The notes beneath the pieces were generated by a model. That model ran no database searches. It was given only the letters and a program-made list of their open reading frames with translations, and was not told the DNA's origin. A DNA stretch of 64,000 nt from Escherichia phage GEP101. Position 1 is the stretch's first letter, and each line of letters opens with the position of its first letter. The position numbers were made by a program, and so were the translations under genes. The stretch is taken from the sequence record PQ036202; one strand, given 5' to 3'. Below, in pieces: positions 2,863 through 34,554 of this stretch.

Positions 2863-4329
2863 ATGGCAGAAATTACAGAAACACAAGAAAGCTTACCACC
2901 ATTTAGAATGGGTGAAGTAGGTTCTTTGGGTCTGAAGGTTAAGAATGGTAGAATCTATGAAGAACCTCGTCAGGCACTAAGGTTCCCTGAAAGTATTAAA
3001 ACTTTCCAATTAATGATGCGTGACCCTGCTGTAGCAGCATCTGTAAATATTATTAAGATGTTTGTCAGAAAAGTCAACTGGAGATTCGTACCTCCAAAGG
3101 GAAAAGAGCAAGACCCTAAAATGCTTGAAAGAGCAGACTTCTTTAATTCTTTAATGGATGACATGGAGCATGATTGGGCAGATTTTATTAACTCTGTAAT
3201 GTCATTCTGCACTTATGGGTTCTGTGTTAACGAAAAGGTTTATAAGAAACGTCAGGGTAAAAAAGGGAAGTACCAGTCAAAATTTGATGATGGTCTAATT
3301 GGGTGGGCTAAATTACCAATCAGAAACCAGTCAACACTTGATAAGTGGTATTTTGACGAAGACTTTAGAAAAGTTACTGGTGTCAGACAAAATCTAAGAA
3401 ATGTTTCACATATTGCTGGAGCAATTAATCTTGGAGAAAGACCACTAACAAGAAAACTCCCACGAGCTAAATTCATGCTGTTTAAGTATGATGATGAGTA
3501 TGGTAACCCAGAAGGTCGTTCACCATTACTTAATGCTTATGTACCGTGGAAGTATAAAGTACAGATTGAAGAGTACGAAGCTGTTGGTGTTTCAAGAGAC
3601 TTAGTAGGTATGCCAAAGATTGGTTTACCACCAGATTATCTGGATGAAAATGCCGAACCTGAAAAGAAAGCTTTCGTACAATACTGCAAAACTGTTGTTA
3701 ATGATATGATTGCTAATGACAGAGCAGGTTTAATCTGGCCTAGATATATCGACCCAGAAACTAAAGAGGATATCTTTGAGTTCTCATTAGTTTCTAGACA
3801 GGGTGCTAAAGCATATGACACAGGCTCTATTATTGACAGATATTCCAAGCAAATTATGATGGCATTTATGTCAGATGTTCTTGCTATGGGTCAGTCAAAA
3901 TACGGTTCATTCTCTCTTGCAGATTCTAAGACAAGCTTATTAGCAATGTCAGTAGATATTCTGCTGAAGCAAATTAAGAACGTAATTAACCGTGATTTAG
4001 TTGCACAGACTTATGCTCTTAATATGTGGGATGATGAAGAACATGTGCAAATCACATATGATGATATCGAAACTCCAGACCTTGAAGCAATTGGTTCTTA
4101 TATTCAGAAGACTGTTGCAGTAGGTGCTTTGGAAGTTGACAAAGAGCTATCTAACAAACTTAGAGAGCATATTGGTCTTCCTCCTGCTGATGAGTCTCAG
4201 CCAGTATCTGAAAAGCTTTCTCCGAATAGCCAAAGCCGTTCAGGAGATGGTTATAAGACCGCTGGAGAAGGTACTGCAAAGACACCTTCAGCGAAAGACC
4301 CAAGCACAGCAAATAAGGCAAATAAATAA
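2863..4329 (+). CDS. portal protein
   Basis: about 490 aa immediately after terL, low-complexity charged C-terminus; ATG at 2863 with AGGTGA RBS. Confidence 0.6.
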   Translation: MAEITETQESLPPFRMGEVGSLGLKVKNGRIYEEPRQALRFPESIKTFQLMMRDPAVAASVNIIKMFVRKVNWRFVPPKGKEQDPKMLERADFFNSLMDDMEHDWADFINSVMSFCTYGFCVNEKVYKKRQGKKGKYQSKFDDGLIGWAKLPIRNQSTLDKWYFDEDFRKVTGVRQNLRNVSHIAGAINLGERPLTRKLPRAKFMLFKYDDEYGNPEGRSPLLNAYVPWKYKVQIEEYEAVGVSRDLVGMPKIGLPPDYLDENAEPEKKAFVQYCKTVVNDMIANDRAGLIWPRYIDPETKEDIFEFSLVSRQGAKAYDTGSIIDRYSKQIMMAFMSDVLAMGQSKYGSFSLADSKTSLLAMSVDILLKQIKNVINRDLVAQTYALNMWDDEEHVQITYDDIETPDLEAIGSYIQKTVAVGALEVDKELSNKLREHIGLPPADESQPVSEKLSPNSQSRSGDGYKTAGEGTAKTPSAKDPSTANKANK

Positions 4330-29688: not shown

Positions 29689-29891
29689 TTTCTCTTACCA
29701 CCAATTTCTACGTCAATAACTTGAACATCACCAGCAACATCGAACTTATGGATGATGCTTTCCACAGTGTAAGTCCAACCATCAATGCGAACCAACTCAC
29801 CTTCCCGTGGGACTATTGGATTACGTTGAGCTACGGTTGTAGTGGAGTGAACAACATCATAACAGTAGATATAGTTTACTAGGACTTCCAT
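29685..29891 (-). CDS. hypothetical protein
   Basis: Start moved to internal ATG 29891 with GAGG RBS to remove overlap with lipoprotein gene. Confidence 0.35.
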   Translation of the reverse strand: MEVLVNYIYCYDVVHSTTTVAQRNPIVPREGELVRIDGWTYTVESIIHKFDVAGDVQVIDVEIGGKRK

Positions 29892-29901
29892 CTTGAAAAC
29901 C

Positions 29902-30138
29902 TCACTCAATAACAGTAGTGTGTGATTGACCATTTTTGCCATAGCTATAAGATGTTGTTGTTTGAGAGTTTGGACATCTGACAACAACAATATCTCTGCT
30001 TATGGCATCACCATGTAACTTATAGACTTTGCAATCTTGCATCTCTGGTGGGAGGCTATAAGAAGCATTTTTATCTTCATAAGAAGGGTTGCACCCAGCT
30101 AGAAAAATAACACCAAGTGCAATTACTGCTTTCCACAT
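29902..30138 (-). CDS. small lipoprotein
   Basis: MWKAVIALGVIFLAGC lipobox after ATG 30138 with AGGAGAGG RBS; 78 aa. Confidence 0.5.
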   Translation of the reverse strand: MWKAVIALGVIFLAGCNPSYEDKNASYSLPPEMQDCKVYKLHGDAISRDIVVVRCPNSQTTTSYSYGKNGQSHTTVIE

Positions 30139-30151
30139 AATACCTCTCCTA

Positions 30152-30307
30152 TTACTGTTCACGATGTTCTACTTCTCTGTACGTTCGTCGATAGTATATA
30201 ATAAGCTGTGCTAACTCGTTGCTTTTAACATCTGAACGTAGCAGTTGCCAATCAAAACCTTTACCAACTCTTCCATATAAGCTAAATAATTTTACTTTGC
30301 GTTTCAT
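30152..30307 (-). CDS. small hypothetical protein (51 aa), not in ORF track
   Basis: ATG at 30307 with GGGAG RBS; translation MKRKVKLFSLYGRVGKGFDWQLL... Confidence 0.3.
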   Translation of the reverse strand: MKRKVKLFSLYGRVGKGFDWQLLRSDVKSNELAQLIIYYRRTYREVEHREQ

Positions 30308-30324
30308 TTTGGTACTCCCAATAC

Positions 30325-30552
30325 TCAGAGGCCAATGCTAATACGTTCACCCTTGAGGACTCCTGTACGGTCTCTTGCAATCTTACCGTCAACAATAAGG
30401 ATATGCGCAGACTTTAAAGATTCACTATTAAAACCTTTTACGAACTTACTAGGCATCACCACAATAAGCATCTCTTGAATCAACTCTGGAGTATAGCAAT
30501 TGTCGTGAAGTTGCTGAATAACGTCTGCAAGTGTCATTTTTGATGTCTCCAA
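30325..30552 (-). CDS. hypothetical protein
   Basis: 75-aa ORF. Confidence 0.35.
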   Translation of the reverse strand: METSKMTLADVIQQLHDNCYTPELIQEMLIVVMPSKFVKGFNSESLKSAHILIVDGKIARDRTGVLKGERISIGL

Positions 30553-30743
30553 TACTCAATATCAATAAGTTCTTGTGCAATGCTTTTCAGATTACCTTTC
30601 AAGAAAACCTTCTCAGAACCTGAAAGAGATGAATTGTCAATTAACCTGTTCATTCTCTCAAACAACTTCTGCTTACGATTCTTGATAGTTTCCTTTGAAG
30701 CCCCTTTCATCATTGCTGCATGGGTTCTTCCACGGTGGCTCAT
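30534..30743 (-). CDS. hypothetical protein
   Basis: 69-aa basic ORF. Confidence 0.35.
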   Translation of the reverse strand: MSHRGRTHAAMMKGASKETIKNRKQKLFERMNRLIDNSSLSGSEKVFLKGNLKSIAQELIDIEYWRHQK

Positions 30744-30794
30744 AAGACCTCCTATATAAGATATTGTATAAGGTACTCTTCCCTGAGCACCTTG

Positions 30795-31328
30795 TCAAGA
30801 TAGTTTTGCAAACTCTCCGTGGAGTTTAATAGCAGCTTCACAGTAAGCTTTATGGGCTTCTTCTGGTGTGTCATGATAACCTAAAAACATCTTCTTACCT
30901 TTATAACTTATCTGTGCGACCCACTTACCAGACTTCTTCTTAAGACTTACACCCTTGTACCCAGATTTATTGGTGACTGGTTTACCTTTATTCCAAGCAC
31001 TTTGAAAGTCATCTGCTTCCCTTAAGTTTACAATCCTGTTGTCAAGTGAGTCTCCGTTGATATGGTCAATGATACCTTTTGGCATCTTGCCATACACGTA
31101 AAGCCATGCGAGTCTGTGTGCTTTATGTGCTTTCTTGTCAAAATAGATACTAACCTGTTTATGACCACTTGAATCAGTCTGGATATTACCTGCCACCTTT
31201 CCTGCATAATTACTGTTAAAAACACTAACAGCTCTTGATTTACCTTCTCTACGAAGCCAAGTAAAGACCCCTGTTTCGGGGTCATAGTGCAGCAGCTCCT
31301 TTAAACGTTTTTGTAAAATTAAATCCAT
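30795..31328 (-). CDS. HNH homing endonuclease with AP2-like DNA-binding domain
   Basis: IDHINGDSLDNRIVNLREA HNH motif; YKGVS...KWVAQISYKGKKMFLGYHDTPEEA AP2-like; start 3 nt after DNA polymerase stop. Confidence 0.75.
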   Translation of the reverse strand: MDLILQKRLKELLHYDPETGVFTWLRREGKSRAVSVFNSNYAGKVAGNIQTDSSGHKQVSIYFDKKAHKAHRLAWLYVYGKMPKGIIDHINGDSLDNRIVNLREADDFQSAWNKGKPVTNKSGYKGVSLKKKSGKWVAQISYKGKKMFLGYHDTPEEAHKAYCEAAIKLHGEFAKLS

Positions 31329-31331
31329 TAA

Positions 31332-31888
31332 TCAATGTACCTCATACCAGCTCTTACCAACCTTTGCTGTACCAGTTACAAGTGTTTCTTTCCTCAAACC
31401 TAAGTTTTTTGAAGCTTGTCCATACATCCAGTCAGCAATTGCTTTCATATCATGTGTCATACCCTCTGGACATTCCCAACTATTTTCATCGTGATATGCC
31501 AGAAGTAACCTTGCTCCGATAGCTGGTTTTCGAGCATTCAGTTTTGTCAGGCCATCTTCACAGGCTTTTCTTGCTGCTAGGTTGATGGCCTCATTCTGAA
31601 TCTGTGCTTCCGAACTCATCAGGAGGTAGTTCAGTAGTTTATGTGGAGATTTGCACCATATCCATGCTCCAGCGACCCTGATATAACCACCTTTAGCAAT
31701 TGAAGAGTTCTTCCCAAAAACCTCTTCCAGAGCCTTTTTAGACACCTTAAAATCAGCTTCTAAGCTATCAAGTAACTTCTTAATCTTTGGCAAACGCATA
31801 TAGTAAGTTTGTTTAGTCAATGCACCTTCTTCCGTAGATGATGCCTTGATAGTTTTTGCAAACTTCTCATCGCCAGCCCCGAACAATA
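31332..31888 (-). CDS. DNA polymerase family A, exon 2 (C-terminal, motif B second half and motif C)
   Basis: LFGAGDEKFAK aligns with T7 pol FLYGAGDEK; HDE motif C; no ATG at exon start (ORF track begins at TTG). Confidence 0.75.
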
Positions 31889-32156
31889 CATCTGGTCAAT
31901 ACACTCGCAAGGTGTACCAGTTCTCTTATGAACTTCTCCGCATTTCTACGGAGTGTCGGACTATATCACGTAGCAGTGATGCTACCGTTGCACTTGGGGA
32001 TGGCCATTAGCTTACCACCCTACTCTACTCAGTTCATACATTAAGTATGCTTTTCGATAGTCTCTGAACGTTCCTCTTAAGAGGCTTCGCTGCTGATTAC
32101 CATATCTTTCCAGACTTAGGCTTCCAGCAATTCACAACGTTTTACATGCGCCACTG
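31889..32156 (-). ncRNA. group I self-splicing intron (ORF-less) in DNA polymerase gene
   Basis: Minus-strand P/Q/R/S elements AATTGCTGGAA, AATCAGCAGC, GTTCAGAGACTATCG, GTGATATAGTCCG; IGS GCGCAT pairs exon end ATGCGT with U-G at splice site; terminal G. Confidence 0.8.
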
Positions 32157-34299
32157 ACGCATAAATGCCATTTTTGGCTTTCTTACGACCTTTTGTAATC
32201 TCGTGAAGAAGCTCCTCATCCTGCGTCTCCCTACAACGAACAATATCATCTTCCTTGTTTAGACCAAAGTAAATACTATTCAGTGTATGTGCATCAGTAC
32301 CTGTGTAGACTTCGTAGAGGTCATTCTCAGCATCATAACGAAGATACTTATCAGTTTCTGGATTGAGGTACTTATCGAGATGCTTGCAATAGTATCTTCC
32401 ATCCTCTTGCTTGGTAAATTCTACTGACTCTTTACCTTCAGTTACCGCTTTGGTGAAGTCTTTATCACCCATAAAGTTACACAGTAAAACAAGCTGTGCA
32501 GAGTTCTGGTCAACTGAAACGATATTAGTCCCTTCCTCGCAAATCCACACCTCCCTCATAGGTGCTCCATAGACAGCAGCACCAGACGGTACGTTTACAA
32601 TACCATATTGTGTCATACGTCCAGTTGAAGTACCAAATACCATTGCACCGGCACTAAGGCGACCATCAGGGCGAATCTGGTTCAACCAACCTTTTTCATC
32701 ATCCTTTGAGTTCTCAATAGTTCTACGTCGGTGCATCAAAGTGTAGTATTTCGCAATCTTCTGTCCAAGCTCACCTTCAATCGTATCATAAGATGATTCA
32801 GTAAGTTTTGGTGAAGTACGGATTAAGCAAGGCTCAAGCAAATCTGTGTACTTCTTCACAGACCAGTTATGCTCAATGTACTGGACACCTTCATGTTCAA
32901 CATAACTCAAACCACACCGTTCCACCATCTCATCCCACTTAGGATGCTTTGTAATCATCTTTTTGTTGTCTTTGAAACGACAAACTTTGACAGGACGACC
33001 GTCAGAGTCTTTCTTGTAGTTCCAGTCATCTGGAATCCAACCAACTGATTTCAAGTAGTCTTTAACAACTGCTACCTGAGTCATACGAGAAACTTCGAAC
33101 TCAATTGGTGTATATGGTGCATCAATCAAACCTGTGTAGCGACTTGACTCAAGCTCAAAGTGGTTAACGACATGGCTGTTATAGTACTTCACAGTTTTAA
33201 CTGTTTTTACTGGCTTCCAGTCTTTGCACTTCTTACCAATCTTTGCATTCAACTCATTGCAAATTGCACGAGCATCCTTCATTGCTACAAAACCTTCCTT
33301 GTACTCTTCACCAGTTACAGAGTTGGTTGGTGTATAGCAATTCCGCTTTTCAATGTTAAAAATCTTTGTAGTTGGCTTACCAAATGGCTTGATTTCATAT
33401 GTCTGCATCTCACCGTTACGTACCTGTTGACGATACTTTGTCTTAGGGTACTTGGTAATTCTTTTCAGTCCATCTGCATGACCAAATGCTTCAACATACT
33501 CATTCCAAGCTTTTGCAAACTCTTCTCCAGTGACTTTACCTTTGGTCTTAATAGTTGGAGGAAGATGTGGTTCAACTTCTGAAGCAAGCTCATTAGTCAA
33601 CTTGTCAAGTTCCTTTACATGAAACTCCATAAGCTCTTTATCAGCTTTCCAACCATTGATAGCCTGTTGACTCATCCAGAAAGATGTTTCTTTAGCTCGC
33701 ATGTAAGTCTCATAAGTGTCTATACCACACTTCTTAAGCTTGAGATACTCGTTATCAAGTGCCCGTTTAGTTTTGGCGTTGATACGGATATCTTCCACAA
33801 CACGAGTGAAGATTTCTGCATTCCACACACCCCAATGTTCAATCTCTGGTTTACGGACACCAACACGAGCACCCCATGCTGCCAAGCCATGAGCACCTTT
33901 ATAGCCCTTTGGAGTTGGTCTATCCATCCACTGAACACGAGACTGGATAAGAGAATCCTGAAAGAAATTACTCCACGGCTTACACTTTGGATTATCAAAG
34001 TTCCACAAATCAGGTGCAATGTGGTTGAAAACCCACCAGTCATAACCGAGACCGTTATGGATGCAAAGACGTTTTGCCTTTAACGCAAACTCAACACCTT
34101 CACGCAAACCACCCTTAATGTACTTGGTGTACTTGTGACCGAGGATAGGCTCATCTGTAAAGACCCATACAGGTGGCTCTTCATCGTCAGATTTATAGTC
34201 TGCGAAAGCCATGACGTGTACTTTAGTGAACTCAAGGAGTAAACCATCAGTTTCTGTATCACCAACTAAGTGTAAGTTTTTAAAATCTACGTTTTCCAT
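32157..34299 (-). CDS. DNA polymerase family A, exon 1 (3-5 exonuclease and polymerase motif A, first half of motif B)
   Basis: GDTETDGL exo motif (cf. Pol I DTETDSL), DQNSAQLVLL motif A-like, RKKAKNGIYA start of motif B; start at ATG 34299 with GAGGGA RBS. Confidence 0.8.
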
Positions 34300-34554
34300 T
34301 TCTACTCCCTCTAAATCATTAACCACATACATTACTGCAAAAAATTATAAAAAGCAAGTTGACAATGTACTTGACAAGGTGTTAATCTTTGCGAAGTGGG
34401 TTTTTACTTAAAAGGTTACTTAACAGTTTAACTATACAGATACTTTAAAACTCTTAAAAGATTATTTAATAGCTTTTAAAAGTTTTAAAGTATAACGTAT
34501 AGAATACGTTAAGATAAAAGATTAAAACTTAATAGTTACTTAAAAGAGGCTTAC

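Follow-up and report, generated by a model that had tools for sequence, protein, structure and literature searches.

This locus raises the question of whether a free-standing endonuclease gene and a group I intron that are close neighbours at a phage DNA polymerase gene move together and, if so, by what route. In the window (the whole stretch of 64,000 nucleotides analysed here, from Escherichia phage GEP101), a gene for a predicted HNH-AP2 homing endonuclease directly follows a polymerase gene that is interrupted by an intron without an open reading frame (ORF). The first-pass annotation had read this as the arrangement proposed for collaborative (trans) homing, and the arrangement does match the published scheme (PMC3984707). 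Collaborative homing is known from two experimental cases (PMC3984707), and how introns and endonuclease genes first meet is still argued from those two cases.

The source DNA was identified as that of a Felix O1-like myovirus (Felixounavirus), with a 5-kb region matching 260 GenBank phage records, mostly at 90-98% identity. Counts were obtained from designed BLAST queries and from 47 related Felixounavirus-group loci that were fetched along with one further locus, that of phage T3; the fetched loci were oriented on the polymerase gene. Three records, MG065664 and MG065668 ('Campylobacter phage A132/A126') and GU169904 ('Staphylococcus phage SA1'), carried a Felixounavirus polymerase, intron and endonuclease at 96-100% identity and look like mislabelled or contaminated entries. 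Two adjoining tRNA genes were also recorded in the window, at 628-717 and 725-797 on the plus strand (46 and 56 bits, Rfam).

The endonuclease gene (30795..31328, minus strand), referred to as the window-type allele, encodes 177 aa from an ATG start. Both of its Pfam domains scored above their cut-offs, with HNH_3 (PF13392) at aa 69-104 reaching 54.4 bits (cut-off 24.8; E=9.3e-15) and AP2 (PF00847) at aa 122-171 reaching 47.2 bits (cut-off 33.3; E=2.7e-12), and the protein matched phrog_99, an HNH endonuclease group, at E=1.9e-72. The motif IDHINGDSLDNRIVNLREA occupies aa 87-105. When 49 homologues were aligned to the protein, D88, H89, N101, L102, R103 and N113 were invariant across the 50 family members and N97 was at least 90% conserved. 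The first-pass annotation had named missing catalytic residues as what would refute it; D88, H89, N101 and N113 are intact and, with the ORF of 177 aa also intact, the call of a genuine free-standing HNH-AP2 gene was borne out. By alignment, the predicted active site is the H-N-N site of the I-HmuI group. The family is large, with 7,822 database proteins at E<1e-3, and tblastn found neither endonuclease paralogues nor an Endonuclease VII gene elsewhere within the window.

An AlphaFold2 model of the protein (pLDDT 95.6) was matched by Foldseek to I-HmuI (1u3e_M) with a probability of 1.00 over 176 columns, which is the full length, and the beta-beta-alpha-metal fold is present in this predicted structure; the TM-score to 1u3e was just 0.40 because the domains are arranged differently. 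The C-terminal third of the model superposed on the plant AP2 structures 1gcc and 7et4 (Foldseek; rmsd 0.8-1.1 A over 50-54 residues), and phmmer gave matches to WRI1 and ERF96. The product is thus probably an I-HmuI-like HNH nuclease, either a nickase or a cleavase, and the best explanation of its predicted specificity is that the C-terminal AP2 domain would supply DNA binding. Among window-type copies pN/pS was 0.1-0.3, and seven of the eight local copies were intact, the remaining one (phage D1-2) being frameshifted; purifying selection on the gene is supported by these data.

A hairpin with a perfect 6-bp stem (GACCCC-GAAACA-GGGGTC, followed by UUU; 31266..31283, minus strand) lies over codons 16-21 of the endonuclease gene (DPETGV, within the motif YDPETGVF) and was flagged as terminator-like by the promoter/terminator scan. 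The stem is preserved in divergent alleles with differing loops, the encoded residues are conserved in the protein too, and a stretch of ~39 nt at the hairpin retains 94-97% identity in alleles whose DNA has elsewhere diverged beyond alignment. This stretch could be an attenuator, a recombination boundary or plain protein-level conservation.

At the junction with the polymerase gene, the stop codon TGA (31334..31332) is followed by the spacer TTA (31331..31329) and the endonuclease ATG at 31328, and the 3-nt gap given in the first-pass annotation is exact. A putative GAGG Shine-Dalgarno sequence for the endonuclease gene (31343..31340, minus strand), read from the sequence, lies within the last polymerase codons, with 11 nt between it and the ATG. 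Empty sites read TAA TTA GTA TTGACAAGG, and filled sites read TGA TTA ATG...TCTTGACAAGG, with ~530 nt in place of GTA and boundaries that are exact to the nucleotide. At the right-hand boundary of the insertion, the hexamer TTGACA (30793..30798, minus strand), placed by sequence comparison, overlaps the endonuclease stop codon; it is also present in empty sites, so the hexamer upstream of the next gene is preserved by the insertion. A sigma-70 promoter regenerated at this hexamer was considered and rejected, given that the promoter scan made no call there and that the spacing to TATACA is 22 nt. The endonuclease ORF is a separate one, outside the intron and any intein, between the polymerase stop codon and the next gene.

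Of 28 unselected Felixounavirus loci from IMG/VR, 12 had nothing in the slot after the polymerase stop codon, and the remainder carried a gene with HNH_3 and AP2 domains. Proteins encoded in the slot were 46-51%, 73%, 83% or at least 96% identical to the window protein, which gives approximately seven allelic types. The window-type allele was found in ~41 GenBank records, with 12 more carrying a variant that is 85-87% identical in DNA. GenBank already labels the gene 'HNH homing endonuclease, AP2/ERF domain' in the Mushroom record. On the other side of the gene, the run of small ORFs that extends to the DNA ligase gene (~29700-30790, minus strand) shows whole-gene indels among relatives and only intermittent BLAST segments, a pattern that marks it as a second, apparently cassette-like variable region adjoining the endonuclease slot.

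The polymerase gene itself was resolved into two exons and an intron. Exon 1 (32157..34332, minus strand) was defined by its ORF and a Pfam DNA_pol_A match and is annotated as DNA polymerase in relatives, where the start is placed at 34299, 33 nt further in. Exon 2 (31332..31888, minus strand; 184 codons and a stop codon) carries motif C (YHDE) and matches the C-terminal part of DNA_pol_A. Between them, in polymerase motif B, lies a group I intron of 268 nt (31889..32156, minus strand), which was the window's only match to Intron_gpI (RF00028), at 62.1 bits and E=2.4e-13, the gathering score being 50. Intron and exon boundaries were set against the intron-less polymerase of phage bumzen. The last base of exon 1 is U and that of the intron is G, and removal of the intron yields ...KNGIYA/LLFGAGDEK... 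(the slash marks the junction), which is Pol A motif B with the frame restored. No sense-strand ORF was found in the 268 nt, and the exon-1 frame stops 13 codons in, in agreement with the ORF-less intron that the first-pass annotation had placed in the polymerase gene. On these features the intron appears to be splicing-competent, and the Meda record in GenBank annotates its polymerase gene as spliced.

The P1 helix (32146..32162, minus strand) was derived by hand from the pairing of exon AUGCGU (32162..32157) with the guide GCGCAU (32151..32146), and has a U.G pair at the 5' splice site; a P10 candidate, likewise derived by hand, pairs intron nt 1-5 (32156..32152) with UAUUG of exon 2 (31888..31884). 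The junction TATGCGT/TATTG is common to all intron-containing alleles and absent from intron-less alleles, because of the needs of P1 and P10 pairing. By our own mapping, the insertion site in motif B corresponds to ~763/764 in E. coli Pol I numbering. When five intron copies were folded thermodynamically to a consensus, the resulting structure paired both intron ends, lacked the group I core and had one compensatory pair, and the Rfam model was therefore used instead. Comparison of ORF-less and ORF-containing forms of the intron gave one compensatory change in a P8-like hairpin and one in P6 (C-G against U-A). Antisense to the intron are two ORFs of 54 and 62 aa (31846-32044, plus strand), the equivalent of which is annotated 'hypothetical protein' in phage L27; these are very likely spurious, lying over a structured intron.

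The identical 268-nt ORF-less intron was found in 44 GenBank phage records. A second form, of ~800 nt, occurs in JH2, Salmonella virus VSe102, Si3 and others; its P6 loop holds an ORF of 161 aa that is of Endonuclease VII type (PF02945, E=6e-20), and its core is 96-98% identical to the ORF-less intron. The ORF lies at 3113-3598 of the VSe102 locus (L039) and is also present in loci L009, L011, L016, L017 and L022, and the 311-nt intron of phage Mushroom (L038) is a deletion remnant of it. The equivalent position in the window is the P6 loop at ~32077-32080, which is a clean CCUC-UUAA-GAGG hairpin. Intron-core haplotypes are common to the ORF-containing and ORF-less forms, a sign of recombination among the intron copies. 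In the window, the intron with ~20 nt of each flank forms an island of ~45 nt that is identical to an ORF-containing-intron phage and is set inside the endonuclease-linked haplotype. It follows that this genome was the recipient of the window intron, that the incoming tract was short and left out the endonuclease gene, and that at least this acquisition was not driven by the genome's own endonuclease. The ends of the tract differ in other window-type carriers, which points to repeated independent intron acquisitions.

The endonuclease gene is part of a divergent haplotype block (30795..32527, minus strand) that begins at motif A, ~370 nt before the intron site, and ends where the gene ends. 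In a sliding comparison, identity to close relatives dropped from 93-100% to 72-84% over the stretch that starts ~370-400 nt before the intron site and reaches as far as the polymerase stop codon, the rest of the polymerase gene being 93-100% identical to the same relatives. Of 300 phage records, only 51 matched exon 2 at 90% identity or more, and 246 did so at 60-80%. The linked polymerase 3' block of ~0.95 kb accompanied the window-type allele in all eight local copies, the 167-aa allele is accompanied around motif C by a haplotype unique to it, and the region is finely mosaic, being made up of deeply diverged haplotypes. Phages HMD-P8 (L034) and SP116 (L006) combine the window-type polymerase 3' haplotype with another endonuclease allele (183 aa and 171 aa, respectively). 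The switch coincides with the polymerase stop codon in HMD-P8 and, in SP116, comes no more than ~25 nt ahead of it, so that alleles can replace one another without conversion of the polymerase gene. A linked divergent block is the pattern expected of homing with co-conversion, and can be read as its likely signature. The hallmarks of a homing gene are present at this locus in the form of precise presence or absence, purifying selection and divergent flanks. As a recombination hot spot, the polymerase 3' end is an unsuitable phylogenetic marker in Felixounavirus.

The explanation that we favour, and hold to be somewhat better than an even bet, is that the ORF is a free-standing gene for an active homing endonuclease and competes with other alleles, and that it would convert the polymerase 3' end while the intron hitch-hikes. 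All alleles occupy one slot, which lies after the Felixounavirus family-A polymerase stop codon and before the next gene. In a mixed infection, the enzyme would cut a polymerase allele without the endonuclease gene, somewhere in the last ~1 kb, and repair off the donor genome would copy the endonuclease gene and the adjoining polymerase 3' segment. The ORF-less intron, 557 nt upstream, could hitch-hike because it lies inside the co-converted segment. This would be trans homing in the broad sense, like that of T4 mobE and I-TevIII, and a cut at the intron insertion site would not be required. Trans and collaborative homing are themselves established mechanisms (PMC2790892, PMC3984707); for the present locus, nuclease activity, cut position and the direction of conversion are what we infer.

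All 44 records with the ORF-less intron had an HNH-AP2 gene at the slot (41 checked, three inferred from near-identical sister records), an association that is confounded by the 557-nt linkage and by shared ancestry and that comprises approximately four independent combinations of allele and ORF-less intron. The intron was present in 31 of the 41 window-type records; the other 13 ORF-less-intron records had a different HNH-AP2 allele, as seen by annotation in nine (including the BPS17L1 RefSeq duplicate) and by BLAST in one, and inferred in three. Among the same 44 records, no ORF-less intron stood beside an empty site, against four of six loci examined for ORF-containing introns.

These counts bear on a narrower form of collaborative homing, in which the window-type enzyme cuts uninterrupted motif B at the intron site, the intron and the gene spread as a unit, and the carrier is protected by the intron or by a heavily synonymously substituted insertion site. 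It would account for the missing combination of ORF-less intron and empty site, and also for the insertion sites themselves: the common uninterrupted site was found in none of the 41 window-type records, where it is either interrupted (31) or of 'bumzen-type' (10), with nine synonymous changes in 30 nt, and the common insertion site was present in all eight local loci with an empty slot and no intron. The geometry is like that in T3, where 10 nt separate the polymerase stop codon from gene 5.3, and the two published cases fit the scheme (PMC3984707). However, the variants that are 85-87% identical in DNA (SP22, Bas63, DaR-2019b, SapYZU01) coexist with an uninterrupted common-type site, as do the 171-, 176- and 183/187-aa alleles and the 73%-identical allele, and the ~45-nt tract brought in the window intron without the endonuclease gene. 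The bumzen-type site does not exceed the divergence of the rest of the linked block (~20-25%) and need not be a selected resistance allele, and exon changes at the splice site are accounted for by P1/P10 pairing. Around the insertion site, the window and bumzen differ at 11 synonymous positions in 36 nt; a reading of these as a resistance allele was rejected, since they are in part P1/P10 exon needs and for the rest match the 20-25% divergence of the block. The first-pass proposal of collaborative homing is supported in part, the occurrence of all ORF-less introns with an HNH-AP2 gene being compatible with it, while three results speak against strict cutting at the intron site, namely the variants with the common site, the ~45-nt intron island and the Endonuclease VII gene in the same intron. 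We regard strict cutting at that site, with spread as a unit, as unlikely.

The last of these results also suggests that the intron might spread independently of HNH-AP2, by the intron-borne Endonuclease VII-type gene or by ordinary recombination, with the two elements merely neighbours in a hot spot and the ORF-less form arising or persisting through recombination between intron copies. The 161-aa Endonuclease_7 ORF that the same intron carries in sibling phages (JH2, VSe102, Si3 and others, with the 311-nt remnant in Mushroom) would be a classical homing route for it; core haplotypes cross the ORF-containing and ORF-less forms, and the flanks of the window intron are identical to those of an ORF-containing-intron phage. 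Yet a donor with the ORF should deliver an intron with the ORF, and the 268-nt form, which has a P6 hairpin of its own and the compensatory C-G/U-A change, occurs with four different endonuclease alleles; nor was it ever seen beside an empty site, where four of six ORF-containing loci were. Such independence is a real but lesser possibility. It would be more surprising still if the protein had been domesticated, as an AP2-type regulator or a replication or packaging accessory, or were an inert relic kept through linkage. Translational coupling to the polymerase gene over the 3-nt gap, the role of plant AP2 domains as transcription-factor domains, and the D1-2 copy, frameshifted without obvious harm, would fit such a fate. 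Invariant catalytic residues and purifying selection argue against it, as do the dispensability of the gene, with the slot empty in 12 of 28 related loci, and the multiple allele replacements and mosaic flanks that are typical of homing endonuclease genes; we consider it very improbable. An active allele that converts the polymerase 3' end with the intron as a passenger remains the preferred reading.

A bolder version can be stated, to which we give little credence at present: that ORF-less introns here survive only in cis to an HNH-AP2 nuclease, that the window-type and 167-aa alleles target motif B, that the intron is both immunity element and passenger, and that alleles compete for the slot, each protecting its own polymerase haplotype. 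If such obligate cis linkage were true, this would be obligate collaborative homing on a population scale and with multiple alleles, with all stages of the intron and endonuclease life cycle in cultured coliphages. The locus shows each state, from the empty site through approximately seven HNH-AP2 alleles, the ORF-less intron and the Endonuclease VII intron to a deletion remnant. The carriers are easily grown phages of E. coli and Salmonella that are more than 90% identical elsewhere, and together make a tractable natural test system.

Felix O1 itself is said to have been listed among phages with HNH-AP2 genes by Magnani et al. in 2004. The HNH-AP2 architecture of phage proteins has been on record since 2004 (PMC5029118, PMC2248197), with such endonucleases described from phages, cyanobacteria and ciliates (Magnani et al. 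2004, via PMC5029118) and from Xanthomonas oryzae phages (PMC2248197). The two-domain architecture is the same there, and these reports deal with that architecture and with gene decay. The literature searched contained no account of the polymerase-linked Felixounavirus HNH-AP2 locus, its alleles or its relation to the intron, and no cleavage, splicing or cross experiments on this phage group.

T3 gene 5.3 (F-TslI) was reportedly described by Bonocora and Shub in 2009, together with I-TslI, the endonuclease of the PhiI/W31 polymerase intron. Gene 5.3, the closest parallel in print, likewise follows the stop codon of a family-A polymerase in a virulent coliphage (after 10 nt, against 3 nt here), and its relatives, like Felixounavirus, have a group I intron in the polymerase gene. 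The gene 5.3 protein is 101 aa long and lacks an AP2 domain, unlike the 177-aa HNH-AP2 endonuclease, and close kinship, prompted by a GenBank record named 'gene 5.3 protein', was rejected on a pairwise BLASTP E-value of 0.006 over 28 aa. In PhiI the intron-borne and free-standing nucleases are homologous, whereas in Felixounavirus the intron-borne one is of Endonuclease VII type. The Felixounavirus site in motif B (~763/764, own mapping) also differs from sites 674 and 676 and from site 881 of Pol I, which we take to be motif C. Site 881 is that of the PhiI/W31 intron in E. coli Pol I numbering, and 674 and 676 are the other published phage polymerase intron sites (PMC3428280). T3/PhiI has been put forward as a case of collaborative homing (PMC3984707). 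The founding example is F-CphI of cyanophage S-PM2 with an ORF-less psbA intron (Zeng et al. 2009; PMC6083498). F-CphI, whose motif is that of Endonuclease VII, has been shown by experiment to cut where the intron inserts, and contrasts with the predicted Felixounavirus enzyme, which is HNH-AP2. Both F-CphI and T3/PhiI cut at the intron insertion site (PMC3984707), and we doubt that the Felixounavirus enzyme would do the same.

The solved structure nearest to the nuclease portion (1u3e) is from the pair I-HmuI and I-HmuII, encoded in the polymerase introns of SPO1 and SP82, which belong to the same HNH_3 family, have the H-N-N site and also act on phage family-A polymerase genes. These two competing enzymes exclude each other's flanking markers (Goodrich-Blair and Shub 1996, cited in PMC3428280), much like the multi-allelic mosaic of Felixounavirus. 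They differ in being intron-encoded at site 674, in having another C-terminal DNA-binding domain and in being known nickases, where the Felixounavirus nuclease is predicted only. In phage T4, mobE promotes trans homing of the defunct I-TevIII intron (PMC2790892). The T4 system involves the gene nrdB, an intron with a decayed endonuclease gene and a MobE protein without AP2, as opposed to the polymerase gene, the clean ORF-less loop and the HNH-AP2 protein of Felixounavirus; with a free-standing HNH enzyme that cuts a conserved neighbour gene and co-conversion that carries an immobile intron, it is the closest to the mechanism favoured here.
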